Source: Patescibacteria group bacterium (lineage in GTDB: Bacteria > Patescibacteriota > Patescibacteriia > UBA9934 > GWF2-40-263). Taken from it: a DNA stretch of 64,000 bases. The position numbers and the translations under genes were made by a program. The stretch lies in the NCBI GenBank assembly GCA_018814025.1, contig JAHJAM010000023.1, forward strand, positions 1,896 through 65,895, read 5' to 3'. The notes below the pieces were generated by a model, which saw only the letters and a list, made by a program, of their open reading frames with translations, was not told the origin of the DNA and searched no databases. This document shows positions 8,940 to 54,156 of this stretch, in pieces. Within the stretch, counting starts at the first letter, position 1, and the number at the start of each line of letters is the position of its first letter.

Positions 8940-8976
8940 CCCTTTGACCCTACCTACTTTTACCCTACCTACCCTT

Positions 8977-10356
8977 ATGTTTCGAAAAACCCTCCCCATC
9001 TTCCTCCTGCTCACTTTCCTCTTCACCACCGGCCAAGGCTGCGGCGGTCCTTCGGTGGCCGAGCAAGCGGCCGCTCAGCCCGTCACTTTAACTATCTGGC
9101 GAGTTTTTGATGAAGACGACACCATGAAGGACATCATGAATGCCTACCGAACCCTTCACCCCAATGTTTCTTTTGAATATCGCCAAATGCGGGTTGATGA
9201 ATACAAAAACGAACTTTTGCGCGCTTTTGCCGAAGGCACGGGCCCGGATATCTTTTCCATCCATAACACCTGGATGAATGAATTCAAAAGTTTGATCGGT
9301 CCCTTGCCCGCCTCGCTGACCATTCCCTACATCGAAATCAAAGGCACTATTAAACAAGAAAAAATTATCACTTTGCGCGAAGAGCCTTCGATTACTCCGG
9401 CTCAAGTTCGCCGCGATTTCGTGGATGTGGTGGCTCAAGACGCGGTCATGCGCTATCAGCCCAATCCCAAAGACGTGCCGCAAGAACGAATTTTTGGCCT
9501 GCCCATGTCCGTGGACACCTTGGCCATGTTCTATAACAAAGATTTATTAAACGCGGCCGGGATTGCGCAGCCCCCGACCAACTGGGCCGAATTTCAAGCG
9601 GCCGTCGTCGCTCTCACCAGTATTGGCACGGATGATTTAATTATTCAATCCGGCGCCGCCTTGGGCGGCAGTGCGAACGTGGAACGAGCTTTTGATATCG
9701 TTTCTTTGCTCATGATGCAAAACGGCACGCCCATGATTGATGATCGCGGCAATTGCACCATTGGCTGGAATGATCGAGATAAACAAACCGTGCCCGGCGC
9801 GGACGCAGTCCGCTTTTACACTGATTTCGCCAACCCGCTCAAAGAGGTCTATGCCTGGAATGCCAGCCAGCCCAACTCCTTTGATGCTTTCACTTCCGGC
9901 AAAACCGCTTTCTTCTTCGGTTATTCTTACCACCTGCCTCAAGTCCGCTCGCGCGCCCCGAAACTCAATTTTGCCGTGGCCCCCACCCCGCAAATCAGCG
10001 GCGGCCACACCGTCAATTACGCCAACTATTGGGTGGAAACCGTTTCCAAAGCCACCAAAGCCAACAATTGGGCCTGGGATTTTGTCCAATTCGCCACCAA
10101 GGCCAACCAAGTTCAAAGCTATCTGAAAATCGCCAACCGGCCCACGGCTCGCCGCGATTTAATCAACAGCCAAATCGATGATGAAGATTTAAATCCCTTC
10201 GTCAGCCAATTGCTCACGGCTCAAAGCTGGTACCGCGGCCAAGACATTGAAGTGGCCGAACAAGCTTTCCTGGATTTAATCGATGCGGCTTTAGCTGGAA
10301 AAATTATCGAAGATGAAATTGATCTGACCCAAAGCAAAATCAACCAAACTCTATGA
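8977..10356 (+). CDS. extracellular solute-binding protein, family 1 (sugar-type ABC transporter SBP), lipoprotein
   Basis: Signal/lipobox (..TTGQGC); family-1 signature region ...VDTLAMFYNKDLLNAAGI; no permease or ATPase gene adjacent. Confidence 0.5.
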   Translation: MFRKTLPIFLLLTFLFTTGQGCGGPSVAEQAAAQPVTLTIWRVFDEDDTMKDIMNAYRTLHPNVSFEYRQMRVDEYKNELLRAFAEGTGPDIFSIHNTWMNEFKSLIGPLPASLTIPYIEIKGTIKQEKIITLREEPSITPAQVRRDFVDVVAQDAVMRYQPNPKDVPQERIFGLPMSVDTLAMFYNKDLLNAAGIAQPPTNWAEFQAAVVALTSIGTDDLIIQSGAALGGSANVERAFDIVSLLMMQNGTPMIDDRGNCTIGWNDRDKQTVPGADAVRFYTDFANPLKEVYAWNASQPNSFDAFTSGKTAFFFGYSYHLPQVRSRAPKLNFAVAPTPQISGGHTVNYANYWVETVSKATKANNWAWDFVQFATKANQVQSYLKIANRPTARRDLINSQIDDEDLNPFVSQLLTAQSWYRGQDIEVAEQAFLDLIDAALAGKIIEDEIDLTQSKINQTL

Positions 10357-10781
10357 GGAAAATCATCCTAACAATTTTTGTCGGCTGTCTTTTTCTCCTA
10401 TCCGCTGCCCCGGCCTTGGCCGATGTGTGCAAAAGTGATAGCTGTTCTAAAACCGAAGTCGGCGCTTTCATGCAAGATATTGCCGCCAAATGCTACAACA
10501 CCGGCGATTGTTCCTTGGCCGACATCATGATCGTGATTAACAACGTGGGAATTTATGTCCTGGGCATCATCGGCTCTCTGGTTCTGCTCATGTATGTCAT
10601 CGGCGGCATCATGATGCTGACCTCAGAGGGAGGAGATCGGAAAGTCCAAGGAAAAAAGATGATCGTCGGTGCCACTGTTGGCATGATCATTGTCTTTGCC
10701 GCTTACGCCGCCATCATCACCCTGGACAGTGTTTTGCGCAATCGCGGCCTGGCCGAAACCATTAGCGAACAACAAAAGTAA
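10353..10781 (+). CDS. T4SS-pilin-like (TrbC/VirB2-like) small membrane protein, paralog 1, with 4-Cys insert
   Basis: Signal peptide; C-terminal GGIMMLTSEGG..K..GKK.I..A.VG.II..AAYA two-TM motif shared with the four downstream genes; ATGA start/stop overlap with the SBP gene. Confidence 0.55.
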   Translation: MRKIILTIFVGCLFLLSAAPALADVCKSDSCSKTEVGAFMQDIAAKCYNTGDCSLADIMIVINNVGIYVLGIIGSLVLLMYVIGGIMMLTSEGGDRKVQGKKMIVGATVGMIIVFAAYAAIITLDSVLRNRGLAETISEQQK

Positions 10782-10808
10782 CCAAATCCAACCAATAATC
10801 TTTATCTT

Positions 10809-11159
10809 ATGAGAAAACAATACTGGCTTGGCACTTTCCTGGGGATAACTCTGGCCTGTCTGCCCCTGATCGCCTTTGGCGCCAAATTAACTAATCCCCT
10901 GGGCGAAGGTCCTGATGCCGCGGATTTCCGTGTTATAATAGGCCGAGTTATTCAGTTTCTTTTGGGCTTATCCGGCTCCTTGGCTTTGCTCATGTTTGTT
11001 TGGGGCGGCGTTCAGTGGATGATTTCCGGCGGCGTTCCGGACAAAATCAAAAAAGGCAAAGACACTTTGATTTGGGCAACTATCGGACTTGTGGTAATAT
11101 TTACTGCATACACGCTGGTCAGCACCCTGATCAAGGCTCTGGCCAACAGTCCGGCTTAA
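10809..11159 (+). CDS. T4SS-pilin-like (TrbC/VirB2-like) protein, paralog 2
   Basis: Same architecture: WGGVQWMISGG..DKIKKGKD...GLVVIFTAYTLVS. Confidence 0.55.
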   Translation: MRKQYWLGTFLGITLACLPLIAFGAKLTNPLGEGPDAADFRVIIGRVIQFLLGLSGSLALLMFVWGGVQWMISGGVPDKIKKGKDTLIWATIGLVVIFTAYTLVSTLIKALANSPA

Positions 11160-11221
11160 CTCGTATCTTTATCAAATAACTTAATTAACCTCACTATAAA
11201 CTTAAGAGGTAAAACATCCAT

Positions 11222-11614
11222 ATGAAAGAACTTTATTACAAAATCGGCACCAAGTTAGCCATTTTGCCCGTGCTCTTAGCCCCTAAAGCCACCTTCGCCC
11301 AAGCTTTGGGACAAGAAGATCTTTTCGGCGGCATAGGTTCAGAAGAGTTTGCTGGCTCTGCCGGTTTGGGAAGCGCTAATTTGACCGATACCATTGCTTC
11401 CATCATCCGCACCATCCTCGGATTTTTAGGCATCATCGCCGTGGTCATTATCCTCTTCGGCGGTTTCAAGTGGATGACTTCCGGCGGCGCTGAAGAAAAA
11501 GTTAAAGATGCCAAAAAACTCATCATCTCCGGCATTATCGGTTTGGTAATTGTACTCTCGGCCTTTGCCATTGCCTCATTTGTCATCACCAACATCGCTC
11601 AGGTTGCTGCTTAA
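11222..11614 (+). CDS. T4SS-pilin-like (TrbC/VirB2-like) protein, paralog 3
   Basis: FGGFKWMTSGGAEEKVKDAKKLIISGIIGLVIVLSAFAIASFVITN. Confidence 0.55.
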   Translation: MKELYYKIGTKLAILPVLLAPKATFAQALGQEDLFGGIGSEEFAGSAGLGSANLTDTIASIIRTILGFLGIIAVVIILFGGFKWMTSGGAEEKVKDAKKLIISGIIGLVIVLSAFAIASFVITNIAQVAA

Positions 11615-11687
11615 TCGAAACGATTTTCTTGGGCCAACCATTGGTTGGCCCATAACGCAAGCGGATAATTTTTTATCCCTTCGCGTT

Positions 11688-12149
11688 ATGAAAAAGATCC
11701 TCAACGCCTTTTTCTTGATCATTATCGGTCTGTTCTCGTTCAGTGCCGTCCCGGCCTTGGCCCAAGGCGGCGTGGCTTTGGAAGGCCTGGATAAAACCGC
11801 GGGCGTGGCCGAATACACCACTGGCGAATCCGCCAATCTGACTAATGTCGTGGGTGGGTTGATTGGTTCGCTTCTGGGCGTACTCGGCATCGTTTTCGTC
11901 ATCCTGCTTATCTATGGCGGCATCAGATATATGACCGCCAGCGGTGATGAAACGCACGTCAAAGAAGCCAAAAGCCTTTTAATCGCAGCCACTGTCGGAT
12001 TAATTATCACGATTTCTGCTTACGCCATTGCCTCATTTACCCTGTCGAGATTATCCATTGGCTTAGGTATTGATAATCAGGGAAAACTAATCTGCGATCC
12101 GGAAACCGGCGTCTGTGTTCAAGGCGGACCAGCCGTTCCCTCTGACTAA
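11688..12149 (+). CDS. T4SS-pilin-like (TrbC/VirB2-like) protein, paralog 4, with Cys-containing C-terminal tail
   Basis: Start placed at MKKILNAFFLIIIGLFSFSAVPALAQG (signal peptide); YGGIRYMTASGDETHVKEAKSLLIAATVGLIITISAYAIASF; the upstream extension of ORF 11550 is rejected. Confidence 0.5.
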   Translation: MKKILNAFFLIIIGLFSFSAVPALAQGGVALEGLDKTAGVAEYTTGESANLTNVVGGLIGSLLGVLGIVFVILLIYGGIRYMTASGDETHVKEAKSLLIAATVGLIITISAYAIASFTLSRLSIGLGIDNQGKLICDPETGVCVQGGPAVPSD

Positions 12150-12194
12150 TTGCAACATAAATTTTATTTATAATAATCAATTATCTAAATCGCT

Positions 12195-12578
12195 ATGAAA
12201 AACATGTTCTACAAAATCGGAGCCTGGATCTCCGTTCTCCCGGTCCTTCTGCTCCCCACCGCCACTTATGCCGGACTTACCGATGCTGGCACTAACCTGT
12301 CTCAAGTTGGCGATGCCGCTAGTTTATCGCAAAACGAAAGAAGCTTACCGAAATTGATTGGTGGTTTGATTAACGTCATTATTAGTGTCTTGGGAATTGT
12401 CTTCGTGATTCTAATTGTCTACGCGGGTATCCTTTATATGACCGCCGGCGGCGAAAAAGACAAAGTCGAAAAAGCCAAAAATCTGATGATCCAAGCGGTG
12501 ATTGGTTTAGTCATCATTGTGGCCGCTTACGCCATTTCAAGCTTTGTTATCACCCAACTCACCACCATCACTTCATAA
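12195..12578 (+). CDS. T4SS-pilin-like (TrbC/VirB2-like) protein, paralog 5
   Basis: YAGILYMTAGGEKDKVEKAKNLMIQAVIGLVIIVAAYAISSFVITQ. Confidence 0.55.
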   Translation: MKNMFYKIGAWISVLPVLLLPTATYAGLTDAGTNLSQVGDAASLSQNERSLPKLIGGLINVIISVLGIVFVILIVYAGILYMTAGGEKDKVEKAKNLMIQAVIGLVIIVAAYAISSFVITQLTTITS

Positions 12579-12622: not shown

Positions 12623-12650
12623 AAAAAAGCCCTCGACCGAAGTCGAGGGC
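12623..12650 (-). terminator. intrinsic terminator of the minus-strand lipoprotein genes
   Basis: On the minus strand AGCCCTCGACTTCGGTCGAGGGCTTTTTT. Confidence 0.65.
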
Positions 12651-12677
12651 TGTGTCAGAGAAAGAACGGAAAGGAGA

Positions 12678-13220
12678 TCAGTAGTACTGATCCACGCTGT
12701 CGACCGGTCCGTTGCCTCGACGCGCGCGCTTTTCCCAGACCTTGCGGCATCGGCCCTGATAGTCGCAGGACAAACCCACAACCACGATCTGAGCTCCGGG
12801 CTGGTCAATCGGCACCCACAAGGCCTGCCCGATCGGCGCCGCCTTGTAAGACACGCTGTCATAGCGCCCGTCGCCGTCCAAGTCCGCAAAGACCTGAGCC
12901 AGCGGCATACCGAAGCAGTTGGTCGATAGCAGATACACGCCCATCGATTCGAAGTTTACCACCATGTGGCTGGCCGTCGGCGCCTTCTTCTCCATGTGCT
13001 GGATCTCGAAGCCGCGGAAACCCACGGGCTTGCACGCCTTGGCCGACAGATGAGAGGCCGCCTTGTTGTACTCCTGCACCTCCACGGACTGGCCTGCCCA
13101 ATTGGGCTGCATGATTCGGGCCGAAGCCAGCTGACCGCGCGAACCCGGGTTATAGGTGAAAGGCACCATCCCGCAACCCACGCTTGCCGCTGCCAGAATG
13201 AGGATTATGAAACATTTCAT
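12678..13220 (-). CDS. hypothetical lipoprotein (GC-rich, atypical codon usage)
   Basis: Signal peptide with lipobox (AASVGC); 180 aa; I recognise no family; composition differs from the flanking genes. Confidence 0.45.
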   Translation of the reverse strand: MKCFIILILAAASVGCGMVPFTYNPGSRGQLASARIMQPNWAGQSVEVQEYNKAASHLSAKACKPVGFRGFEIQHMEKKAPTASHMVVNFESMGVYLLSTNCFGMPLAQVFADLDGDGRYDSVSYKAAPIGQALWVPIDQPGAQIVVVGLSCDYQGRCRKVWEKRARRGNGPVDSVDQYY

Positions 13221-13249: not shown

Positions 13250-13909
13250 CTACTTCTGATCGAACTCGCCACCCAGCAGGATCTCGTTATCCTTCTTGAT
13301 GACGGTCATCTCGTCCTTCATGACCTTGTTCTCCGTTTCGGCCGCCACCACTCGCTCTTCAAGCTTCTTAAGAGCTTCGGCACCGGCCGCTGACAGGCTG
13401 GCTGTTCCTGACTGGCCGGTTGGCGTATTGGCGAAACCTTGCTGAACCGGCATCGAAGTGCCGCCCAAAGCCGAAACCGGAACTGCCGTCGGCGCCTGCA
13501 CCCCATTCATCCTCATCATCTGATCCCGAAGGGCCATCTGAGAATCCATGAGGTAGATCTGATCGATCCCGCCGCCGAACATGTTACCCATGCCCGGCAT
13601 ACCCATCATACCCATACCATTGCCACCAGAGGCTGCCTGGACCACACTCGCGTCGCCTGTGGCGGCGCGCTTGCAGTTCCCGAAATTGTCGCAGTCCTCG
13701 ATCTGGGCGTTCTTGCCTTCTTCCATGGCCTTAGCCGTTGCCTTAGCCACCACCGTATCCGCGGTCTCGAACCCGTGGGTCTTCTTCTCTACCCTGACCT
13801 TGGCATGGGTCTCGGGATCTGTCTCGTACCGGACCTTGGACTCGGAAGTGTAAGCACATCCCGAGAGCATCGAAATCGCCAACGCGATCATCATCACTCG
13901 CTTCATCAT
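13250..13909 (-). CDS. Met/Gly-rich lipoprotein with C-terminal coiled coil
   Basis: Start placed at MMKRVMMIALAISMLSGC (lipobox LSGC); low-complexity GNGMGMMGMPGMGNMFGGG segment; C-terminal heptad-like KKLEERVVAAETENKVMKDEM. Confidence 0.45.
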   Translation of the reverse strand: MMKRVMMIALAISMLSGCAYTSESKVRYETDPETHAKVRVEKKTHGFETADTVVAKATAKAMEEGKNAQIEDCDNFGNCKRAATGDASVVQAASGGNGMGMMGMPGMGNMFGGGIDQIYLMDSQMALRDQMMRMNGVQAPTAVPVSALGGTSMPVQQGFANTPTGQSGTASLSAAGAEALKKLEERVVAAETENKVMKDEMTVIKKDNEILLGGEFDQK

Positions 13910-14111
13910 CGCCTCCTGCTGGTTAAAACCAGACGTTCTGACTGTTAATATTTCAAGGTCCAAAAAAGGCACCAACTCGAGGGGATGTTATACGCCCGGT
14001 AGTCCAACCAATGGTTGCACTTCCGGGTCAAGCCGGAACGTCGTTTCGTTTGGCTTCATAACATAAGTTAGCACCTTTTTTGACCCCTCAAATGTCATTT
14101 TGCAACAGCTA

Positions 14112-14140
14112 AATATATCACAATTTTACGATTTTGTCAA
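14112..14140 (-). promoter_or_regulatory. consensus sigma70-like promoter (TTGACA-N17-TATATT) for the lipoprotein genes
   Basis: Minus-strand TTGACA at 14135-14140 and TATATT at 14112-14117 with an exact 17-nt spacer; a leader of about 190 nt reaches the gene start near 13909. Confidence 0.5.
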
Positions 14141-14197
14141 CCCGATAGGACAGCAAACGGTTGTACTACCGGGTCAAGGGTTTGAGGCTAATTTTAG

Positions 14198-14238
14198 TAA
14201 AAAAAGAGCCCAAGCGCGTGTAACAACGCGCTTGGGCT
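14198..14238 (-). terminator. intrinsic terminator of the 799-aa membrane protein gene
   Basis: Minus strand AGCCCAAGCGCG-TTGTTACA-CGCGCTTGGGCT followed by CTTTTTTT. Confidence 0.65.
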
Positions 14239-14243
14239 AGAAG

Positions 14244-16643
14244 TTAAAAGGACTTGCAATTCTTATCGAACTTAGCCTTGGCCGCCTGATTGTTGGCCAT
14301 CAGCTCCTTCCAATTGGCACACAGAGCCTGCTGTCTGGGCGTGAGCTTCGGCTTTCCTCCCTGCTTCTTGCCGCCAGTCCCAATGGACCGAACAACCGGG
14401 CTTGCTCTGGGCAGATCGTTCTTGGAAACCTCGCCCCTGAACAGGAGCCAGCCCAGGAAGATGGCAACCAACATGGCCGATATTGTAGCGATCAAACCGG
14501 CCAAGTCAGGGCTGAAAGCGCTCAGCCCATCTTTGTACGAGCGTTGCATGCTTGCCCTGACAACCCCGCCGATCACCAAACAAATGATGATAGACAGAAT
14601 CACGAACAGTGCCTTACCACTGAGATCAGGCAGCTGATCAACGCCCATGATCGACAGAGAACTGTCGTTGATCATGTATTTCTGCTGGCCGGAAGGCGTC
14701 TCCACGGTCTTGACCAGAACTCCGGGCAAATTGACCATCGTGCCCTTGGGCAGGACCACGATCCCGGCCGCTCCGTCGCACGTGAAGTGCTCGACCAAAG
14801 CCTTTTTCTGCGCTTTAGCCTCAGTCTGCTTGCTGACGTTGTTCTTATTCTCCTCAGTCAACAAGCACTTGTCAGTCAAAGCCGCACTCAGCTTCTCACC
14901 GAAGACCTTGAGGGCCGGCTCGTAGCGCTGGCCCGGCAAAGGCACAACCAGGGTGTTAACCTGCTCGCCCTTGTCCGAAAACTCAGCCTGCCAAGCCACG
15001 GTCACGGGAAAAGCTGCACTCTCGCGCAAATCGTTGATCACGGCCGCTCGGCCGCACACCAACAACATCACGATCGCCAGCAAGATCGGCCAAGTGCCGA
15101 TCCGCTCTTCGCTTTTGGCCGAAAACAGCCAGGCCGAGAGCAGCAGCGCCGCCAACGTTCCCACCACTCGGCCGAACATCGCAAAGTCAGCCAAGTTAAT
15201 GAACACGCACAGGACCATGTTGAGCACGATCGCCCAAGCCAGACCCCGAGCGTAATTCACGCCCCAATGGAAATCTCGGCCGGCCGCGATTTCCGTGACT
15301 CGATCCAGCACTGCCTCCACAGCCTTCACCGGAAGCAGTAGCAAGGCAAGCGGCAGTCCCAGCCCCATGGCCAGCCCAATCGCCAAGACCGGGTAACCGA
15401 TCAGTGTGGCCAACCATGGCAAAGCCAGGAGCAACACCGCGATCAGCAAGCCCACAATGGACCGCTTGACCCAGGTCCAGATGAACTGTTTTCGGCGCGT
15501 GGCGACTTGGTCGCCTCCCTCATCGTCCGTAAACAAAGAGAGAATCGTCGATTTCCACTCCTGGAAGGGCGCCAATTCCGCGCCGCTCACATCAAGAGCG
15601 GTGATGTATTCGATCATGAACTCTTCCGGCATTGTGCCGTCAGGCTCAATTTTTCCCTCGAGCTGATGAGCCAGCTCTTCCAGGACCTGCACATTGCGAA
15701 TCGTCGCCGGATTATTGACCGCTTCCAAGAACTTCTCAAAGTTCTTGTACTTGACTGAGGTGAAGCTCAGCGAAGTCGTCCCGCGCATCCGACGTGCCAC
15801 CGACCTGATCACGGCCACGTGGACCTTGATCAACAGCGGACTGGCCTGGTCGAAATTCTTGACCGAAGGCTGGGTAGCGGTTGAAGCTTTCTTTTGAAGA
15901 TCAACCTCACCCACATTCCCCATGCACACCGGACAGAAGAATTTCTTCTGAGCCAAAGCGATGCCGATGGGATGAACTTCGACTTTCCAGAGCTTGCCTC
16001 CGACCAGCACATCCTTTTTTAACTTGTTGTCCCACCGTGTGGTCTGGGCATTCAGCTCCTCAAACATAGCCTCCGCACTCGCATACAGCTCGCACGGAAC
16101 CACCGGATTGCCATTCTCCTTCTTCATGACCGTCCCGTCGGCATTGAGCGCCACGCGATGCGCACCAGCCACCCGGGGGGCGACCGCTGCCATCTCGTAC
16201 TCGCCCACCGACGCGGCCGTCGTACCCGCGGCCGGCGTACCCAATTTCTCATCAACCGTCCGGTCAATGAGATCTTCGAGATCCGCATCCGCCAGCCCGT
16301 CCACAGCACCGAAGCACAGATGAGGAATCAGGGCCTTGATCACGGCTTTGGTCTTGGGCTTCAAGTAAGCGCTTGGAATAAAATCCACGAGCCACTCAGC
16401 CGCCCCGCCGACCGCTCGTCCGAACATCTCGAACCCCGGCAGTTTGCGCGCGCCATTGATCAACAGGAAGAAGGACTTGGCGAACTCGTTCTCATTCTGG
16501 CGCTTGGCCAGCTCCACCAGCAATGAACCGGCCACGTTCCGAGCCCCTTTCTCAAAGGTCTCGGTTCCGACCGCCTTGCCGGCAGTACCAAAAAAGTCTC
16601 CAAACCTGCTCAAATCCAAGTCTCCAAAAGTCACCTTGGCCAT
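14244..16643 (-). CDS. large polytopic membrane protein of unknown function (about 400-aa soluble N-terminal region with a CPVC motif, then two TM clusters and a basic C-terminal tail)
   Basis: 799-aa ORF with a good SD (GGAGGAAAGAG) before the ATG; GC-rich with AAG-preferring codon usage unlike the flanks; I recognise no known domain. Confidence 0.5.
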   Translation of the reverse strand: MAKVTFGDLDLSRFGDFFGTAGKAVGTETFEKGARNVAGSLLVELAKRQNENEFAKSFFLLINGARKLPGFEMFGRAVGGAAEWLVDFIPSAYLKPKTKAVIKALIPHLCFGAVDGLADADLEDLIDRTVDEKLGTPAAGTTAASVGEYEMAAVAPRVAGAHRVALNADGTVMKKENGNPVVPCELYASAEAMFEELNAQTTRWDNKLKKDVLVGGKLWKVEVHPIGIALAQKKFFCPVCMGNVGEVDLQKKASTATQPSVKNFDQASPLLIKVHVAVIRSVARRMRGTTSLSFTSVKYKNFEKFLEAVNNPATIRNVQVLEELAHQLEGKIEPDGTMPEEFMIEYITALDVSGAELAPFQEWKSTILSLFTDDEGGDQVATRRKQFIWTWVKRSIVGLLIAVLLLALPWLATLIGYPVLAIGLAMGLGLPLALLLLPVKAVEAVLDRVTEIAAGRDFHWGVNYARGLAWAIVLNMVLCVFINLADFAMFGRVVGTLAALLLSAWLFSAKSEERIGTWPILLAIVMLLVCGRAAVINDLRESAAFPVTVAWQAEFSDKGEQVNTLVVPLPGQRYEPALKVFGEKLSAALTDKCLLTEENKNNVSKQTEAKAQKKALVEHFTCDGAAGIVVLPKGTMVNLPGVLVKTVETPSGQQKYMINDSSLSIMGVDQLPDLSGKALFVILSIIICLVIGGVVRASMQRSYKDGLSAFSPDLAGLIATISAMLVAIFLGWLLFRGEVSKNDLPRASPVVRSIGTGGKKQGGKPKLTPRQQALCANWKELMANNQAAKAKFDKNCKSF

Positions 16644-16830
16644 CTCTTTCCTCCGTATACGGCTAAGCCGATTTGTTTTTAGGTTGTTAACGATCTATTT
16701 AAACTCGGCTAAGCCGAGAGATCTCCCCATATGGGATTGCCGATTAATCGGCCTACCCGCATACGAAAGACACGTAAATATACCATATTTTAGCCAAAAT
16801 GTCAACCCTGTCTGACAGGGCCCTTGAAAC
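16644..16830 (-). promoter_or_regulatory. promoter (TTGACA-N17-TATATT, minus strand, 16777-16805) plus a palindrome-rich 5' leader for the 799-aa gene
   Basis: Palindromes CCCTGTCTGACAGGG (16806-16820, abutting the -35), GCCGATTAATCGGC (16739-16752), CGGCTAAGCCG twice (16660-16670, 16706-16716) and CCGTATACGG (16653-16662). Confidence 0.45.
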
Positions 16831-24480: not shown

Positions 24481-25020
24481 ATGGCCGCAAGCAAAAAACA
24501 ATTCACCCCACAAACCATCCTCTCGGCTTGCCGCCGTCATTTTGTGGACTTTAGTTTTGTCATCTTGGCCGGCATCTTAGCCTTCAATGTGATTTTTGCG
24601 ACAGCCGTCAGTGCTGACAGCAATCAAGCCGCCCAATTCCCCAAAAAAGAAACCGTGGCCATGATGGTTGAAGCCATGCAAAATCAAACCACCGGTTACG
24701 GTTCTTTGCCTGAAGCCGGGGTGGGCCAACCGCGCTGGAGCATCACTGTTCCGGTTACCGCCTACTCTTCCGAACCCTGGCAAACCGATGACACCCCCTT
24801 CATCACCGCTTCCGGCACCCATGTCCGCGACGGCATTGTGGCCGCCAACTTTCTTCCGATCGGCACCCAAGTTCGCATCCCCGAAGTCTATGGTGATAAA
24901 GTCTTTGTGGTTGAAGATCGCATGAACCCCCGTTACTACTACCACCTGGATATTTGGATGTCCCAAACGCCTGAAGCCAAAAACTTTGGACGCAAACACT
25001 TAAAAATTGAGGTATTTTAA
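24481..25020 (+). CDS. 3D-domain (MltA-like) membrane-anchored protein
   Basis: TM anchor; C-terminal TAYSSEPWQTDDTPFITASGTHVRDGIVAANFLPIGTQVRIP...HLDIWM fits the 3D domain. Confidence 0.55.
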   Translation: MAASKKQFTPQTILSACRRHFVDFSFVILAGILAFNVIFATAVSADSNQAAQFPKKETVAMMVEAMQNQTTGYGSLPEAGVGQPRWSITVPVTAYSSEPWQTDDTPFITASGTHVRDGIVAANFLPIGTQVRIPEVYGDKVFVVEDRMNPRYYYHLDIWMSQTPEAKNFGRKHLKIEVF

Positions 25021-25202: not shown

Positions 25203-26336
25203 TTATTGTTTGATCGGCATCACGATGTAAAGATATTCCTTTTTTTCTTCTTTTGGGGTGATCAAACACGGATTTGACGGATCGATCATTTCAAATAATA
25301 TCTTCTCAGTTGAAATTGCATTCAGTCCATCCAGCAAATATCGATAATTAACCGTCACATTATTAACTTCTCCGGTAATTTCCGCCGTGCAAGTCGCCAC
25401 ATTCTCACCCCGGTTATTGTCCACGGCTCTGATTGAAAATTCGCCTTTACTTGGCGCAATTTCCAAGGTCACATCAAAAAGTCCGGTCTTTGAAAACAAA
25501 CTTGCCGCTTTCACCGCTTTAATAAAATCTTCACGGTCAATCATCACGGAAGTTCGATATTGTTTAGGGATAATTTGCCGATAATCAGGGTAATTTCCTT
25601 CAATTATACGTGAAATTAACTCCACCGAACCATAATTGAATACCACCTGATTTTCGGACAAATTCATCACTATCTCGCCTGGTGCATCAACCGAATCCTT
25701 GAAAACCGAAAGAATGCGGCCAACCTCAGATAAAGCTTTGGTTGGTACGATCACTTCCATATCCTCAAGCGGCGCCTTGGCTAATGGCAAGGTTCGCTCG
25801 GCCAGTCGATAAGAATCAGTCGCCGCCAAAACAACCTGTCCCCCGCCGTCTTTTGTAAACCGCATAAAAACCCCGGTTAACTCCGGTCGAGATTCATTCA
25901 AAGCCGAAGCGAATAAAACTTGCGTCAAAGCCCGGCGAAAATCATCTGCTTTAATTTGATATGACTTACTCGCTTCGACGGTTGGGATCAAAGGAAACTC
26001 TGAGGCTGATACGCCATTAATCCGCGTCTTATGATTTCCACACACCACCCTCATACCGTCATCCTTAATTTCCATCTCCACAGTTTCATTCGGCAGCAAA
26101 GAAACATAGTCTAAAAATAATTTTGTCGGAGTCGTATATTCGCCCGGCGCATCAACCTTTCCCCTTACGCTGCAGCTGATCGCCGTTTCCAAATTGGTCG
26201 TAGTAAAACGAATATTTCCGCCTTCTGCCTTGATCAAAACATTCTGCAACACCGGTAAATTAACTCCTTTGTTAATTAAATGTCCGGTAACCGACAAACC
26301 TTGATATAAGTTTTCCCTTGTACAAGAAATTTTCAT
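25203..26336 (-). CDS. dnaN: DNA polymerase III beta sliding clamp
   Basis: 377 aa, MKISCTRENLYQGLS..., three-domain clamp length, directly downstream of dnaA. Confidence 0.85.
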   Translation of the reverse strand: MKISCTRENLYQGLSVTGHLINKGVNLPVLQNVLIKAEGGNIRFTTTNLETAISCSVRGKVDAPGEYTTPTKLFLDYVSLLPNETVEMEIKDDGMRVVCGNHKTRINGVSASEFPLIPTVEASKSYQIKADDFRRALTQVLFASALNESRPELTGVFMRFTKDGGGQVVLAATDSYRLAERTLPLAKAPLEDMEVIVPTKALSEVGRILSVFKDSVDAPGEIVMNLSENQVVFNYGSVELISRIIEGNYPDYRQIIPKQYRTSVMIDREDFIKAVKAASLFSKTGLFDVTLEIAPSKGEFSIRAVDNNRGENVATCTAEITGEVNNVTVNYRYLLDGLNAISTEKILFEMIDPSNPCLITPKEEKKEYLYIVMPIKQ

Positions 26337-26612
26337 ATTCTTTCCTCCCGCTTTTTATTATAATTTTTTCTTTATATATAACAGTAGTAACAATAAGGTA
26401 TGTGGATGGTTTGGATAACTCATTTTAACCCTGATTTTACAGGCTGTTCTTATTACGCAGATGTGCGCTTCTTTGTGTGGTGAACCTGCTTAGAATGAGG
26501 ATACTTTACTCTTTGATTCTGAACACAATATTTATCTACAGTTACCAAGTGTTTGTTCCACAGCTTTATTCACAATCGAGAGTTCACTTTTCCACAGTCT
26601 GATCACAGAAAT
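26337..26612. promoter_or_regulatory. putative oriC segment (dnaA-dnaN intergenic) with a DnaA-box cluster and an AT-rich unwinding element
   Basis: Near-consensus boxes TTATCTACA (26532), TGTTCCACA (26553), TTATTCACA (26568), TTTTCCACA (26588) and TGTGGATGG (26401); AT-rich run 26350-26395. Confidence 0.55.
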
Positions 26613-28019
26613 TTAAAGTGCGTACAGTCTTTGCTTAATCAATTCAATATCATGTCTTAATTTTTCATCTTCCTCCAAGCAGCCATTAATTTTTTCATAA
26701 GCGTGCATGGCTGTGGTGTGGTCGCGACCGCCTAATTCTGTGCCAATCGTCGGATAACTCATCTTCATTTCTTCCCGCATAATGAACATGGTAATTTGAC
26801 GGGGAAAGGCCAAACGTTTTTCTCGACTCTTGCCTAAAAGGTCTTCGATTTCCAGGTCAAAATATCCGGCCATGGTTTGGATTAGCTGTCGCGGGGTTAC
26901 ATTCTTTCGTGTTCCGGTCGGCTTAAAGCTGGCCATGATCGGTTGCACGGTATCAACGGTCGGTGAAATATTTTTAAATTGATGGAAAGCGATAATTTTA
27001 TTCAATGCCCCTTCCAATTCTCGCACATTGCTTTGGACGGCCATGGCCATGCAATGGAGTACTTCATTAGCCAGTGGATAACCTTTTTCTTGGCACTTCG
27101 TTTCCAGGATGGCCACGCGCGTTTCAAAGTCCGGACTGCCGACATCGGCCATCATCCCGCACTCAAATCGGGAAATTAACCTGCTTTCCAGGGTTGGGAT
27201 GGCTTTTGGTGGTCGGTCAGAAGTGATCACAATCTGTCTGTTTGACTGATATAATTGGTTAAAAGTGTGAAAAAACTCCTCTTGAGTGCCTTCTTTTCCG
27301 GTAATAAATTGGATATCGTCAACCAGTAGCAAATCGACATTTCTATAGCGATTTTTGAATTCTCGAGCCTGTCCGCCCCGAACCGCATTAATAAAGTCAT
27401 TGGTAAAACGCTCGCAAGTCACGTATAAAACTTTAACATTTGGGTTTTTATTGATCATTTCGTTCCCGATCGACTGCAACAGGTGAGTTTTTCCCAGACC
27501 CACCCCACCATAGATAAATAATGGGTTATAAACTCCTCCTGGCTGGGCCGCCACCGCCTGAGCTGCCGCATGAGCCAGCTCATTTTGTTTACCCACCACG
27601 AAATTTACAAAATTATATTTGCTGTTTACGGTTAAATCTCCTGAAACTTGTGATTGGCTGCCGGCTGATGGCATTGGTTGATGAGTCTGTAAGTTTTCTT
27701 GGTCGGGGATGGACTCTGGCCTATTCCCCATCACCTCTGCAGGGATCATTTGTGGTGATGCTGGGCGATTTTCAACTCGGTAGACGATCGTCTTAGTCCG
27801 GTTTCCGGTCAGATTCTGCAACGAAGTCATGATCTCTTTGTGATACTTCTTCTCAAGCCAGGCTTTGGTAAAAAGATTAGGTACGCCAATTATGACCTCC
27901 TCCTCCCGGCAAGATGCGATAAAAGTATTTTTAAACCAAGTGGTGAAATTAGCTTTGCTTAAAGAGAGTTCAAGCTCTCCCAAGACCGCCTGCCACAACT
28001 CATTTGAATCCATACTCAC
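26613..28019 (-). CDS. dnaA: chromosomal replication initiator protein DnaA
   Basis: N-terminal domain I (WQAVLGEL), AAA+ Walker A GGVGLGKTHLL, C-terminal DNA-binding domain. Confidence 0.9.
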   Translation of the reverse strand: MSMDSNELWQAVLGELELSLSKANFTTWFKNTFIASCREEEVIIGVPNLFTKAWLEKKYHKEIMTSLQNLTGNRTKTIVYRVENRPASPQMIPAEVMGNRPESIPDQENLQTHQPMPSAGSQSQVSGDLTVNSKYNFVNFVVGKQNELAHAAAQAVAAQPGGVYNPLFIYGGVGLGKTHLLQSIGNEMINKNPNVKVLYVTCERFTNDFINAVRGGQAREFKNRYRNVDLLLVDDIQFITGKEGTQEEFFHTFNQLYQSNRQIVITSDRPPKAIPTLESRLISRFECGMMADVGSPDFETRVAILETKCQEKGYPLANEVLHCMAMAVQSNVRELEGALNKIIAFHQFKNISPTVDTVQPIMASFKPTGTRKNVTPRQLIQTMAGYFDLEIEDLLGKSREKRLAFPRQITMFIMREEMKMSYPTIGTELGGRDHTTAMHAYEKINGCLEEDEKLRHDIELIKQRLYAL

Positions 28020-30237: not shown

Positions 30238-31416
30238 TTATTTCTTGGCCGACATCTTTTTGTTAGCCTTCTTCTTCTTTTTTGCCGAAGCGGCCGTTAG
30301 CCCTTCAAGCTGAGCACCAGGGTAAGTTCCGTCGACCAAATATTGGCTGAACAGAGACTTGGTCATCTCTCGGAGATCCTCGGTAAAAACTTCCGGGGTC
30401 GTCTGTTTTTCTCGAGTTCCCACAAAAGAACCAATTCTCATTTCTACTCGGCAGGGAGTCATCGAAATCACCTTTCCCTCGATGGGGTCTTCGGCCTGCA
30501 TTCCGGAAACAGTTACCGAAACCGTAGTGATGCCTTCTTGGTTGGCAGCTGCCACCACCACCTGTCCGCCCATGGCCTTGATCATGGAATGCAGATCAGC
30601 TCGTACGGCATTGGCGGCCGCGTTCATCGGGAACACGCCCGTATCAGTCTCCTCAATCGTTCGGGTCACCAGCACCCCAAATTTCTGATCCTTGAAGTTT
30701 GGGATCTGAGCGATCTGTTGGGCCTGGTTCTTGGCTCCCAAAGCCGCCAGACACTTCTCCTGCATGCCGCGCGCTTCGTCGCTGATCCGCGCCATGTTCT
30801 GAACGCAGAACTTCTCGAACACGCTTTCTTCCTGGCTGTCGTGTTCGCATCCATACTTGTCCGAGTTTGAGAATTCAGCTAAAGCTCGACACTGCTGGCG
30901 CAGGCCATCAAGCTTCAGAGCCAAATCGCCCGCATCCTCCCAAAGACCCATGGCCACAATCCGCTCGTAACGCAGTTTTGTGTTGCCCAGGGCTTCACGA
31001 TTGTCCAGGATTTTCTGCCTGGCCTTGGCTCGGTTCTCGCGCTTGAGTTCAAGCACAGTGTCCGCTTGCTTCCTGATCCCCAAAAACTCGGCGCACTTCA
31101 GACCCTCATCGGGCCAGTGCTCGAGCAAAGGCTGGAAAGCTGCCTGGCAAAATTTTCGGTATTTCACTTCCGTGGGCGAACTCTGCTCAATGGACACGCC
31201 GTCCTGGAGTGCATAGTAGTCATTGTCCAAGGCGTCTTGCCAAGCCGAGAAAGCCACCAGCAGCGCCTGGGGCTGTCCCGAGCTCTGCCAATTTGCAGTT
31301 GCTGCCTTGGCCGCCCGGACATATGCCTCGTTGCTCTCCTGCGCCAAAGCTGGCGGAACCGTAATCCATGCGATCATCAAACAAGAGACAGAAAGAAACT
31401 GTTTGTGAAGGTGCAT
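30238..31416 (-). CDS. secreted hypothetical protein with poly-Lys C-terminal tail
   Basis: Signal peptide (..ITVPPALAQE); 392 aa; C-terminus SAKKKKKANKKMSAKK; good SD (AGGAGG); no family recognised. Confidence 0.45.
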   Translation of the reverse strand: MHLHKQFLSVSCLMIAWITVPPALAQESNEAYVRAAKAATANWQSSGQPQALLVAFSAWQDALDNDYYALQDGVSIEQSSPTEVKYRKFCQAAFQPLLEHWPDEGLKCAEFLGIRKQADTVLELKRENRAKARQKILDNREALGNTKLRYERIVAMGLWEDAGDLALKLDGLRQQCRALAEFSNSDKYGCEHDSQEESVFEKFCVQNMARISDEARGMQEKCLAALGAKNQAQQIAQIPNFKDQKFGVLVTRTIEETDTGVFPMNAAANAVRADLHSMIKAMGGQVVVAAANQEGITTVSVTVSGMQAEDPIEGKVISMTPCRVEMRIGSFVGTREKQTTPEVFTEDLREMTKSLFSQYLVDGTYPGAQLEGLTAASAKKKKKANKKMSAKK

Positions 31417-31481: not shown

Positions 31482-31540
31482 ACTATAGCAAAAAAATCAC
31501 CTTTTGTCAACCCCGTACCACCATGCACTGTGGTACGGGG
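31482..31540 (-). promoter_or_regulatory. consensus promoter (TTGACA-N17-TATAGT) with an 11-bp-stem hairpin abutting the -35
   Basis: Minus-strand -35 at 31505-31510 and -10 at 31482-31487; hairpin CCCCGTACCAC-N8-GTGGTACGGGG at 31511-31540, flanked by direct GTCAAC repeats. Confidence 0.45.
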
Positions 31541-41313: not shown

Positions 41314-42591
41314 TCAATTACATAGCAAAATCTTTGTATCAAATAGGCTATTTCGAATACCCACAGAGGAATAGGCCTCGGTGATCGGAAAAGCAATTTG
41401 CCAGTTTCGTGTATGCAAATTATTAGCCGACAGACCAACCCAGGAATCAACATTCATAAACCCACTCGTTCCACCACAAGGTGCCTCACGAAGAGAATTA
41501 TCCTCGCCGGTTAGCCAGAATCGAACTAACGCTTCTCGATTGCTGATTACCAACCGGCCACGATCATATCCAGAAAATAGATAATGTGTTGGATCAACCA
41601 AAACTCGCGACCATGGCACACCAGCTATCACCAATTCCTCAACCGATATTGCAGCCGGGTCAACCGAAATCTCTTGAGCTGTTGAATTATCAGACAAGAC
41701 GAAATCAGATATTCGCGGAGAATGTAAAGCTGCTGATAATTTGATTAGTTTCTTATGCATTTCCGGGTCATTTTCATCCTGATAACTGCTTATCAAGAAT
41801 CCAACCCCGTCTTCATCGTTTGAAAGCATTACAAGCTCAATGTTTTGTTCGAAAATACGTGTAAAACTAGCTAAATTTTGATCAAATTCTTCTATTAGTG
41901 GATAAACAGGCAAATTTGAATGAACTGAGAAGTTTGTCAAGAATGGCGTTGACATAATTCCAAACACGTCTTCAGGTATTGTTTTCCAAGGCAGTGCTGT
42001 CAAATCCGATTTTGGCAAAGAAATTTCCAAGTTATTTCCATCCCCATATATGTCACCTCTAATTAGAGGGTCATTCAATATCAATATCTGACCCAACAGC
42101 TTTGTTTCAAACATAAATGGAATATTCGGCAGGTTCCACCCCCTTTTGAGTTGAGTTGTGGAAAAAGGCATGATCTGATTGGCAAGAAAAAGATGATTTG
42201 GTCCGATTTCCCGCACGACAATCCCCTGAGCATCCAGTTCATCCCGGGGTAAGGTGTTTAATGACCCTCGAATTCCGACTGACATATTTCCGTCATTTTG
42301 GATATATATTGCCACTTCGCCCTGAGCAAATCCCACCAAGTCCGATATGGTTAAAGATTTTCCGGTTATTAGGGGAATATTGAGCAGGTTCTTCTCAATA
42401 ATAGGCCAAGTATTTCGATCCGGTGCCAGACGAATAATGGCTATGGTTCCATCCGGGACAATCTCGGAGATTGTTTGTCGAGAAAACCACCAAAAAGAGG
42501 CACAGTACGCCAACACTGTTAGCAATAGTGCCAAAAGCAATATCCAAACAACCCGCCGTGAACGGCGGGTTGTTTTATACGAATTACGCAT
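41314..42591 (-). CDS. hypothetical membrane-anchored protein
   Basis: Start placed at MRNSYKTTRRSRRVVWILLLALLL (TM helix) so that it does not overlap pnp; no family recognised. Confidence 0.4.
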   Translation of the reverse strand: MRNSYKTTRRSRRVVWILLLALLLTVLAYCASFWWFSRQTISEIVPDGTIAIIRLAPDRNTWPIIEKNLLNIPLITGKSLTISDLVGFAQGEVAIYIQNDGNMSVGIRGSLNTLPRDELDAQGIVVREIGPNHLFLANQIMPFSTTQLKRGWNLPNIPFMFETKLLGQILILNDPLIRGDIYGDGNNLEISLPKSDLTALPWKTIPEDVFGIMSTPFLTNFSVHSNLPVYPLIEEFDQNLASFTRIFEQNIELVMLSNDEDGVGFLISSYQDENDPEMHKKLIKLSAALHSPRISDFVLSDNSTAQEISVDPAAISVEELVIAGVPWSRVLVDPTHYLFSGYDRGRLVISNREALVRFWLTGEDNSLREAPCGGTSGFMNVDSWVGLSANNLHTRNWQIAFPITEAYSSVGIRNSLFDTKILLCN

Positions 42592-42613
42592 TGGAATATT
42601 CAGCTTTTGCACA

Positions 42614-47500: not shown

Positions 47501-47593
47501 CCGCCTTCCAACCACAGTCTCCGGACTGTGGTTTTTTCTATTATCCTGCCCCAAAATGTGATACATTGTAAGCAATTCTTAATCGAAAATTTT

Positions 47594-54127: not shown

Positions 54128-54156
54128 TTGACAGTCTCTTAACCCTGAGATATTAT
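54128..54156 (+). promoter_or_regulatory. consensus promoter TTGACA-N17-TATTAT driving the GC3-extreme orphan gene
   Basis: Exact hexamers with a 17-nt spacer; followed by the leader hairpin CCGCAAAATTTGCGG (54168-54182) plus TTTTGCTCTTTT. Confidence 0.55.

Follow-up and report, generated by a model that had tools for sequence, protein, structure and literature searches.

By sequence comparison, the 799-aa protein encoded in a 64-kb stretch of Patescibacteria DNA (the window, by which we mean the whole stretch analysed) is a new family, and the RNA leader ahead of its gene is a new RNA motif. The word new refers here to protein family and RNA motif as judged from sequence alone; genomes of this kind commonly contain unannotated genes. 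NCBI names the ORF hypothetical protein KJ611_03210, Patescibacteria group bacterium. The limits and length given for it in the initial annotation were reproduced exactly, with an ATG start (Table 1), and both the motif KKFFCPVCMGNVGEVD and the C-terminus ...CANWKELMANNQAAKAKFDKNCKSF were found in the translation. It is, as had been proposed, the largest non-housekeeping ORF in the window, the only longer ones encoding PBP1 (1017 aa) and PolA (881 aa). A frame of 777–826 codons is unbroken at the syntenic position in four lineages and more than 100 columns of the four-sequence alignment are invariant; the gene is therefore real, and the ORF is not open by chance. On this sequence evidence it is an expressed-looking gene and the founder of a four-member orphan family.

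Table 1 Features of the 799-aa gene, the adjoining lipoprotein operon and the pilin array (positions in the window).
Feature	Position	Strand	Details
Promoter, 799-aa gene	16777..16805	(-)	TTGACA, 17-nt spacer, TG-extended TATATT; 11/12
Conserved structured 5′ leader, 129 nt	16644..16772	(-)	Closing helix of 13-14 bp with three internal hairpins inside
799-aa ORF, orphan 7-TM membrane protein	14244..16643	(-)	ATG start; 799 aa
Residues 1-135, helical N-terminal region, predicted cytoplasmic	16239..16643	(-)	Poorly conserved, 20-31% identity between homologues
Residues 136-260, invariant H162, C184, C237-x-x-C240	15864..16238	(-)	Four-sequence alignment
Residues 261-378, juxtamembrane domain, all-helical; motifs MRG286-288, SGAEL353-357	15510..15863	(-)	Most conserved segment
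Residues 379-537, basic RRKQFIWTWVKR segment, then TM1-TM5	15033..15509	(-)	Hydropathy, alignment
Residues 538-676, predicted extracytoplasmic beta-rich domain	14616..15032	(-)	Invariant GxQxNTLVVPLP (559-570); Cys pair C593/C622
Residues 677-737, TM6 and TM7	14433..14615	(-)	Poorly conserved, 17-26% identity
Residues 738-799 and stop codon, basic tail	14244..14432	(-)	Conserved LCxxW motif, second Cys (C775, C796)
Intrinsic terminator, 799-aa gene	14207..14238	(-)	13-bp stem and T-run; kept in L003 and L001
Second promoter, lipoprotein operon	14112..14140	(-)	TTGACA-17-TG-TATATT; kept in L003 and L007
Lipoprotein-operon leader, conserved	13910..14105	(-)	Long hairpin 13962-14081 with GGUGCC end, then UUUUUU
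LP1, 219-aa lipoprotein, lipobox LSGC	13250..13909	(-)	Cys pair C73/C79
LP2, 180-aa lipoprotein, lipobox VGC	12678..13220	(-)	Four invariant Cys: C63, C102, C152, C158
Terminator, lipoprotein operon	12628..12651	(-)	Convergent gap facing pilin array
Array of five VirB2/TrbC-like 'T4SS_pilin' genes	10353..12578	(+)	PF18895, E = 6e-15 to 4e-4

The initial annotation could place the protein in no known family, and searches of Pfam, NCBIfam, PHROGs, PADLOC and the PDB bore this out; a confident profile match that explains the whole architecture was looked for and none was found. With all three proteins of the locus (the 799-aa protein and the lipoproteins LP1 and LP2), Pfam, NCBIfam, PHROGs and PADLOC gave nothing above lipobox-level matches, and the PDB gave no match by sequence or profile. 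The window's 799-aa protein had no Pfam match at E ≤ 1, and Pfam searches with all four family members at E ≤ 10 returned no recurrent family; its best PHROG match had E = 0.98, and PADLOC gave no significant match (best E = 0.021, 10.8 bits). Against 5.8 billion clusters, word-indexed searching with the single sequence and with a profile recovered the known relatives alone. Exhaustive phmmer against 1.84 billion representatives recovered three relatives with 28–46% identity, contributing one further member that is 28% identical. All three are Patescibacteria with the gene at the same oriC-proximal locus. No relatives of the 799-aa protein were found when GTDB genomes, JGI metagenomes and IMG/VR were scanned with back-translated sequence, or when 72,556 plasmids and 50,697 phage records were searched by tblastn. 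As far as these sequence collections reach, the family occurs in a single narrow clade of Patescibacteria and nowhere else.

The protein has an N-terminal region of ~395 aa before TM1, in line with the soluble ~400 aa described previously. Hydropathy and AlphaFold secondary structure place the TM helices at residues ~396–416, 417–438, 466–488, 490–508, 516–537, 677–697 and 714–736. The two clusters recognised in the initial annotation are thus retained, with the count revised from about four helices and a second cluster to five plus two. The CPVC motif (C237-x-x-C240) lies at 15924–15935. Its reading as a possible metal site stands, while that of a lone half zinc ribbon does not, the motif belonging to the invariant set H162/C184/C237/C240, which is probably a four-ligand metal (Zn) site, judging from the alignment. 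Residues 261–378 are 58–81% identical among the three closer homologues and have the best local pLDDT (63–78). An acidic helix carrying E443, D447, E451 and D457 lies between TM2 and TM3, and the invariant residues M476, C479 and N483 share one face of TM3. The C-terminal tail, predicted to form a helix-turn-helix, is basic as reported before (charges +13/-4, pI 10.2). This architecture is kept even in the family member with 28% identity.

We infer a topology with seven TM helices, the N-terminus inside and the C-terminus outside. The protein has no signal peptide and carries five positive charges directly ahead of TM1, both of which support N-in, and the short loops hold 14 positive charges on the predicted inside against 5 on the predicted outside. 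The conserved Cys pairs of the protein are confined to predicted outside segments, and LP1 and LP2, the certainly exported lipoproteins, have even numbers of invariant Cys. Together, the positive-inside counts on short loops and the Cys pairing would place the loop at residues 538–676 outside. The beta-rich loop of ~140 aa and the basic tail are thus predicted to be external, each with a disulfide, as are LP1 and LP2. A naive positive-inside reading would put the strongly basic tail in the cytoplasm. AlphaFold models of the full-length protein (3 sequences) and of residues 255–740 (4 sequences) had pLDDT values of 42.8 and 54.9, respectively; both are of low confidence and too weak to support a fold assignment, so domain folds and contacts with LP1 and LP2 are given as predictions. 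Foldseek against the PDB returned nothing at E < 0.001.

The expression signals claimed for the gene were all recovered. An SD (GGAGG) lies 6 nt ahead of the ATG, the promoter upstream matches the sigma-70 consensus at 11/12 positions, and the terminator hairpin of the upstream gene stands ahead of that promoter. Three of the four lineages share all 29 promoter bases, and the remaining one differs by a single base. Nine promoters in the window score 11/12, which rules out any special promoter strength at this gene. The long structured leader proposed in the initial annotation is 129 nt in length and has a minimum free energy of -54.7 kcal/mol, below that of dinucleotide shuffles (z = -5.1 to -5.9). 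In its closing helix the 5′ segment CUUUCGUAUGCGG pairs with CCGUAUACGGAGG, sequestering the SD, and each of the four orthologous leaders has its SD paired to nt 4–8 (P(unpaired) ≤ 0.1). Modelling thus shows a leader predicted to fold the SD against its own 5′ end. The consensus structure has 32 pairs, four of them with compensatory changes, although with four family members the covariation and conservation statistics are thin. Promoter and leader DNA is 82–85% identical between lineages, compared with 74–79% for housekeeping coding sequences, and the leader is better conserved than the 799-aa protein itself. Rfam gave no match for 16644–16805 at E ≤ 1 and none for the whole window at gathering thresholds (4227 families). 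A covariance model of the leader found one copy per locus and no second copy in the window, and an exact-pattern scan of the genome and metagenome collections gave 0 matches.

The lipoprotein genes form a second transcription unit, whose promoter resembles that of the 799-aa gene beyond both hexamers. Both units combine a strong promoter with a leader conserved above the coding sequences. The long hairpin of the lipoprotein leader is terminator- or attenuator-like, with GGUGCCUUUUUU as the candidate termination site, and this leader also carries a 37-nt palindromic insertion (13995–14031) seen in this window only. A conserved small ORF in the leader was considered and rejected, the frame being lost in L003. 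LP1 begins with MMKRVMMIALAISMLSGC and LP2 with MKCFIILILAAASVGC. In each, a basic n-region is followed by a hydrophobic core and then by a lipobox whose final Cys is invariant in all homologues. By these signal peptides and lipoboxes, the two would qualify as bacterial lipoproteins, and a neighbouring solute-binding protein also has a lipobox, which suggests that the lipoprotein pathway is present. LP1 further contains an invariant Gly/Met-rich NGMGMMGMPGM sequence, a Pro-rich linker and a coiled-coil-like C-terminal helix. LPAM_1 and lipoprotein-family models matched weakly on the signal-peptide segment of LP1 and LP2. No family match for LP1 was found in Pfam, NCBIfam, PHROGs or PADLOC; its weak PHROG matches, which include Rz-like spanins (E = 0.03–0.13), span the signal peptide and lipobox only.

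The three genes differ from their surroundings in divergence and codon choice. Flanking proteins are 65–87% identical between lineages (most 74–87%), compared with 28–48% for the 799-aa protein and 42–52% for LP1 and LP2; on sequence identity, divergence of the three genes runs at two to three times the pace seen elsewhere in the locus. They also share an inverted codon preference. In the window, AAG, GAG and CAG make up 68–96% of their Lys, Glu and Gln codons, compared with 12–37% in other gene sets; the pooled fraction for the three genes is 0.72–0.92 in the four lineages, and flanking genes of the other lineages have 0.25–0.57. A 'GC-rich foreign island' (GC3 anomaly) is weakened as an account of this, as the three genes hardly depart from other membrane genes at four-fold sites and the anomaly is seated in the A/G and C/T choices of two-fold sites. 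Synonymous sites are saturated across the four lineages, so dN/dS is no guide there. Relaxed constraint, in place of positive selection, could account for the fast divergence. The most variable parts of the protein are the predicted cytoplasmic N-region and TM6–7, not the predicted outside loop, a distribution that poorly matches diversifying selection of a purely external kind.

The 799-aa gene always has the Fe-S cluster genes (IscS-NifU-ferredoxin-reductase) on one side and, where sequenced, the two lipoprotein genes on the other. Co-occurrence with the lipoprotein genes, the check suggested in the initial annotation, is seen in the three lineages whose contigs extend that far. VIT1 (iron transport) is also a neighbour, alongside IscS, NifU and ferredoxin, and the locus is ~10 kb from dnaN/dnaA. 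Beyond the lipoprotein genes, two lineages have a VirB2-like pilin array, the second being L007. In the window the first pilin gene overlaps the stop codon of the solute-binding lipoprotein gene (8944–10356) and scores 20.7 bits against PF18895, under the cut-off of 26.6; three others score 41.8–55.5 bits, and the fourth gene (153 aa) has a precomputed PF18895 match. The array is convergent with the lipoprotein operon and is not co-transcribed with it. Arrays of VirB2-like pilin genes have been described in a T4SS survey (PMC12102498), the supplements of which do not include this assembly.

Our preferred reading, held tentatively and at somewhat less than an even chance, is an envelope complex that is specific to the clade, diversifies fast and is produced under RNA control. 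The 799-aa protein would form the membrane-spanning core, with its outside loop and basic tail engaging LP1 and LP2. The cytoplasmic part would comprise the variable helical region, the His-Cys3 metal site and the conserved helical domain joined to the conserved 5-TM bundle; bundle and juxtamembrane domain may couple the surface assembly to the cytoplasm, as a conduit or a signal relay. We propose that exposure to the host cell or to phages of an episymbiotic bacterium subjects the complex to diversifying pressure or to frequent allelic exchange. Synthesis of the 799-aa protein would be off by default, the leader being opened by a factor, ligand, processing or temperature before ribosome binding, and the terminator-like hairpin may gate the lipoprotein operon. 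A further-reaching and rather improbable version has the three genes specifying a new kind of trans-envelope complex at the host-contact interface of an episymbiotic Patescibacterium, its diversity maintained by allelic exchange, with two new cis-regulatory RNA classes, one SD-sequestering and one attenuator-like, that answer a host- or contact-derived signal. Frequent allelic exchange would account for the persistent bias towards G-ending codons as well as for a divergence out of step with the genome.

Much of bacterial diversity belongs to the ultra-small Patescibacteria, which live attached to other cells and whose interface proteins are mostly uncharacterised. The locus would represent a compact three-gene envelope module without detectable relatives outside its clade. 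Flanks with 65–87% identity around a module with 28–52%, and inverted Lys, Glu and Gln codons in four lineages, are what is expected of a host-specificity or phage-interaction determinant.

Several features of the locus could instead point to a domesticated mobile-element or phage remnant, for example a superinfection-exclusion, abortive-infection or lysis-type membrane module whose potentially harmful product is silenced by the leader at the level of translation. Codon usage unlike the rest of the genome, orphan status with fast divergence, and autonomous strong promoters and terminators are all consistent with this, as is a leader that would be off by default through long-range pairing of its 5′ end with the SD, a fold that recalls the inert full-length hok and tisB mRNAs. 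The spanin-like PHROG matches of LP1 also point this way, although they are limited to the signal peptide and lipobox, and the 799-aa protein has neither a significant PADLOC match nor a PHROG match better than E = 0.98. The phage records, plasmids and IMG/VR hold no relative, no integrase, repeats or tRNA were found at the borders, and the genes occupy the same position in four lineages with saturated synonymous sites, so their codon usage should mirror current forces and not past transfer. We regard a remnant as unlikely. Handling of soft metals (Cu/Zn) is very unlikely; here the cytoplasmic His-Cys3 site and the intramembrane TM3 Met/Cys/Asn site would act together with Met-rich LP1, an extracellular metal sponge or chaperone, near Fe-S assembly and VIT1 genes. 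Both sets of residues in the 799-aa protein and NGMGMMGMPGM in LP1 are invariant, the latter resembling the Met-rich motifs for Cu(I) in CopA, PcoA and Ctr1, and IscS, NifU, ferredoxin and VIT1 are neighbours. However, Gly/Met-rich tails also occur in chaperones (the GGM repeats of GroEL), and a terminator and a separate promoter divide the 799-aa gene from the Fe-S genes. No similarity to metal transporter, HMA, CopC/D, CusF or CDF models was detected, no metal-sensing regulator or known metal riboswitch was found, and metal systems seldom evolve at such speed.

The neighbouring pilins suggest another origin, namely a highly diverged membrane part of the type IV secretion-like apparatus of Patescibacteria, acting as a VirB6-like channel or as a platform for VirB2-pilin extraction and assembly, with LP1 and LP2 as VirB7-like partners. 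Monoderm VirB6-like proteins such as TcpH of pCW3 (tcp locus; TrbL/VirB6, PF04610) are polytopic, ~830 aa in length and have a sizeable extracytoplasmic loop, and the 799-aa protein is of similar size and type; a protein of this type should have at least five TM helices plus a large extracytoplasmic loop, and ours has 5 + 2 helices and a 139-aa loop in the inferred topology. Its gene adjoins the five-gene VirB2-like array, an adjacency retained in a second lineage, ~10 kb from dnaN/dnaA and near oriC, a frequent site of T4SS genes in Patescibacteria (PMC12102498). VirB6 homologues are reported to be few in certain classes, 'suggesting extreme sequence divergence' (PMC12102498). Against this, none of the four members has a TrbL/VirB6 or other T4SS Pfam match at E ≤ 10, and hhalign of the family profile with TcpH gave a probability of 0.4%, on which homology to VirB6/TcpH was rejected. 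The large ORFs of the window hold no VirB4, VirB3 or coupling-protein domain, and the pilin genes are convergent with the 799-aa gene, transcribed separately and terminated separately. TcpH-type proteins also put their TM helices first, in contrast to the 395-aa cytoplasmic region that comes first here. A secretion origin is decidedly unlikely in our assessment. A spurious or decaying ORF without function has next to no probability: homologues restricted to a tiny clade and 'hypothetical protein' as sole annotation would suit it, but the 777–826-codon frame is intact at 28–48% identity, the alignment has >100 invariant columns and a block with 58–81% identity, SD, promoter and leader are conserved, and the 28%-identical member retains the architecture, a pattern that effectively refutes it.

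Some other known systems show partial likenesses. Peptidase_A24 prepilin peptidases and polytopic zinc proteins also combine cytoplasmic Cys ligands, including CxxC, with a multi-helix membrane domain, and pilin-like genes lie near the 799-aa gene. However, the family has no Peptidase_A24 or DiS_P_DiS match and lacks paired intramembrane Asp residues or GxGD; no invariant Asp lies inside any TM helix, with E443, D447, E451 and D457 in the TM2–TM3 loop. The ligand set, H...C...CxxC, spreads over 80 residues, and the pilins next door belong to the VirB2 type, not to type IV pilins. The zinc-binding anti-sigma factors (ZAS), with HxxxCxxC in a short N-terminal domain, were rejected as relatives, as H162 precedes C237xxC240 by 75 residues and Pfam gave no RsrA or zf-HC2 match. 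Like the lipoprotein partners of envelope machines (VirB7, spanins), LP1 and LP2 are small and fast-evolving with canonical signal peptides and lipoboxes, and their genes come after a membrane protein gene; they differ in that their database matches are restricted to the lipobox region. The organism is thought to be single-membraned, so outer-membrane anchor roles do not apply.

The leader recalls SD-sequestering leaders such as RNA thermometers, translational riboswitches and hok/tisB. In all four orthologues a 5′-proximal CUUUC anti-SD pairs with GGAGG, within a long closing helix that surrounds internal hairpins with compensatory changes. It belongs to none of the 4227 Rfam families, and its closing helix (13–14 bp) is much longer and more stable than those of RNA thermometers. 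Its target would be a membrane protein of 799 aa and not, as for hok/tisB, a small toxin. The two conserved leaders of the module are amenable to testing in vitro without culturing the organism.

Comparison of four lineages shows that the 799-aa gene and the two downstream lipoprotein genes, LP1 and LP2, form a real, clade-restricted envelope module that is fast-evolving, has distinct codon usage and carries RNA-level control elements under strong purifying selection. The 799-aa protein, identical to the NCBI entry “hypothetical protein KJ611_03210” (GCA_018822945.1, Patescibacteria group bacterium), has no match in the family libraries Pfam, NCBIfam, PHROGs and PADLOC, or in the PDB by sequence or profile search. 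A word-indexed search of 5.8 billion clusters yielded two relatives, P0002 (44–46% identity) and P0003 (41–44%), and exhaustive phmmer against 1.84 billion representatives added only P0004 (28%). A profile built on all four members found no further relatives, and scans of plasmids, phages, IMG/VR, JGI metagenomes and GTDB species genomes yielded none. The initial annotation was thus right to leave the protein outside any known family. Patescibacteria commonly carry orphan genes; what is unusual here is that extreme rarity, a contrast in rate, a codon inversion that is kept up and leaders more conserved than coding sequence come together. The locus defines a new protein family and a new leader RNA motif.

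The window is an ordinary oriC-proximal stretch of Patescibacteria chromosome, encoding DnaA, DnaN, PBP1, VIT1, IscS-NifU-ferredoxin-reductase, H+-PPase, PNPase, PolA and six tRNAs. In all four lineages the 799-aa gene lies directly 3′ of IscS-NifU-ferredoxin-Pyr_redox_2. LP1 and LP2, whose co-occurrence had been proposed as a check, come next in every lineage with a long enough contig (three), and the pilin array beyond them recurs in the lineage of sample ERR14790950. That lineage is represented by two contigs, L001 and L007, meeting at an inverted repeat; the L001 3′ end (TCAATGCACCACC) and the L007 5′ end (GGTGGTGCATTGA) are reverse-complementary. The assembly apparently broke at this repeat, just downstream of the terminator of the 799-aa gene, and the two contigs are therefore probably contiguous. 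The first pilin gene (142 aa, four Cys) overlaps by 4 nt the stop codon of a solute-binding lipoprotein gene (region 8944–12578, + strand). This setting suggests envelope or host-interface biology for the 799-aa protein.

Features of the module, its surroundings and the 799-aa protein
Feature	Position	Strand	Remarks
799-aa ORF	14244-16643	-	ATG start
Promoter of 799-aa gene	16805-16777	-	TTGACA-17 nt-TG-extended TATATT; 11/12 sigma-70-type match
Terminator of 799-aa gene	14238-14207	-	13-bp stem
Lipoprotein operon promoter	14140-14112	-	operon also has own terminator
Lipoprotein operon promoter + leader	13910-14140	-	~80% identical to contig L003; present in L007
Long hairpin in lipoprotein leader	13962-14081	-	ends GGUGCC, then UUUUUU
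LP1	13250-13909	-	downstream of 799-aa gene, same strand
LP2	12678-13220	-	downstream of 799-aa gene, same strand
Five divergent VirB2/TrbC-like “T4SS_pilin” genes	10353-12578	+	facing LP1/LP2
dnaA and dnaN	25203-28019		near pilin array
Second orphan gene, 361 aa	54344-55429	+	N-terminus MTQNQNRNRNTTTGNNRRYRRH...; no Pfam match
Promoter of 361-aa orphan gene	54128-54156	+	11/12; leader ~190 nt
N-region	residues 1-260		identity 19-31%
Helical juxtamembrane domain	residues 261-378		identity 58-81% among three closer members
TM1-5	residues 379-537		identity 58-65% among three closer members
Loop	residues 538-676		identity 40-46% among three closer members
TM6-7	residues 677-737		identity 17-26%
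Tail	residues 738-799		identity 18-40%

The ORF proved to be as first described, with its coordinates, ATG and quoted motifs all present, and the strong Shine-Dalgarno (SD) sequence, own promoter and long structured leader reported for it were likewise borne out. GGAGG precedes the ATG by 6 nt, and the 11/12 promoter comes after the terminator hairpin that ends the upstream reductase gene. With its own promoter and terminators on both sides, the gene is therefore a separate transcription unit with a leader of ~129 nt. Promoter and leader are 82–85% identical between lineages over aligned bases, compared with 74–79% for housekeeping coding DNA and 64–68% for the gene's own coding sequence. Each of the four leaders, folded alone (z = −4.0 to −5.9), forms a closing helix of 13–14 bp that pairs GGAGG with nucleotides 4–8 (CUUUC), leaving an SD unpaired probability of at most 0.1. 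Of the 32 pairs in the consensus fold, four, all in a variable internal hairpin, show compensatory changes. Rfam gave no match; the covariance model derived from these four sequences detects a single copy at each locus and no other in the window, and exact-pattern scans of collections of genomes and metagenomes gave no hits.

The promoter of the lipoprotein operon resembles that of the 799-aa gene, and the operon has a conserved leader of its own that also lacks an Rfam match. Its SD is free, unlike the sequestered SD of the 799-aa gene, and its long hairpin looks like a conditional terminator or attenuator, or the terminator of a ~140-nt small RNA. Both leaders are directly testable. A ~37-nt palindromic element (TTGACCCGGnAGTnCAACC...CTAnCGGG) is inserted at 14141–14178, upstream of this promoter, and at 13995–14031 (−), within the leader; neither copy is in the orthologous region of L003 and the window holds no others. 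It resembles a REP/MITE-like mini-insertion.

Hydropathy and secondary structure from two AlphaFold runs give the 799-aa protein seven membrane helices. The two transmembrane groups of the initial annotation stand, and its count of about four helices in the first becomes a 5 + 2 arrangement, the sole correction to that description. Between the groups lies a loop of 139 residues, and the second is followed by a basic tail (+13/−4, pI 10.2). Pairwise identity among the four sequences is very uneven along the protein. Invariant residues include H162, C184 and C237-x-x-C240, best read as a predicted cytoplasmic four-ligand zinc site; MRG286–288 and SGAEL353–357; an acidic stripe between TM2 and TM3 (E443/D447/E451/D457); M476/C479/N483 on one face of TM3; GxQxNTLVVPLP at 559–570; C593 and C622 in the loop; and LC775xxW in the tail, where all four proteins carry another Cys close to the C-terminus. 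We infer from sequence an N-in, C-out topology, because there is no signal peptide, five Lys/Arg directly precede TM1, positive charges in short loops number 14 predicted inside versus 5 predicted outside, and conserved Cys pairs are confined to predicted outside segments. Invariant Cys are also even in number in the certainly exported lipoproteins (LP1, 2; LP2, 4), matching these pairs. The main feature against this topology is the very basic tail. In LP1, a Gly/Met-rich stretch (NGMGMMGMPGM) is also invariant, and the protein has a coiled-coil-like helix at its C-terminal end.

Flanking proteins of the other lineages share 65–87% identity with those of the window, against 28–48% for the 799-aa protein and 42–52% for LP1/LP2. 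This divergence is out of step with the genome: flanks in contigs L006 (65–86%) and L002 (76–87%) are similarly close to the window's, whereas the 799-aa protein is 28% identical in L006 and 45% in L002. GC3 is 0.73–0.78 in the module genes versus 0.32–0.69 in the window's other real genes (one further orphan excepted). Their four-fold sites (0.70–0.73) are like those of other membrane genes (0.69), and it is the two-fold sites that are inverted: AAG makes up 72–96% of Lys, GAG 68–80% of Glu and CAG 88–95% of Gln codons, shares that are 12–37% in the window's other gene sets. The pooled G-ending fraction for these amino acids is 0.72–0.92 in the module in all four lineages versus 0.25–0.57 in the flanks. 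As synonymous sites are saturated between lineages, we take the bias to be under present-day maintenance and not left over from a single ancient transfer. It might be caused by recurrent allelic replacement, by selection on mRNA, or by biased gene conversion, a process proposed for bacteria, at a recombination hot spot. Window-wide, four-fold-site GC is 0.69 in membrane or secreted protein genes versus 0.59 in cytoplasmic ones, a genome-wide trend separate from the module's codon anomaly.

A joint reading, which we put forward tentatively, is that the 799-aa protein would be the membrane-spanning core of the module, engaging the lipoproteins through its outside loop and tail and linking surface to cytoplasm through the conserved 5-TM bundle and juxtamembrane domain. 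Exposure to a host cell or to phages might drive diversification, and translation of the 799-aa gene would stay off until the leader is opened. That the module is instead a domesticated mobile-element or defence/lysis module seems unlikely. The VirB2-like pilin array close by, and published work on Patescibacteria T4SS (PMC12102498), make a diverged T4SS membrane component an attractive identity for the protein, yet neither profile tests nor the gene content of the window support it; VirB4 was not found anywhere in the 64 kb, despite the closeness of dnaA/dnaN to the array, and we consider this identity quite improbable. A soft-metal handling system is a distinctly remote prospect, and a non-functional ORF is barely credible.

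The codon anomaly is more extreme in the 361-aa orphan gene (GC3 0.87; G/C-ending two-fold codons 0.92), flanked by a Germane/Gmad2 gene and rpiB; this gene and those of the module may form one class of atypical genes. Four other ORFs of 179–470 aa, at 30238–31416 (−), 41314–42726 (−), 47528–48670 (+) and 24481–25020 (+), lack a Pfam match; the N-terminus of the first resembles a signal peptide, and this ORF has an 11/12 promoter at 31510.
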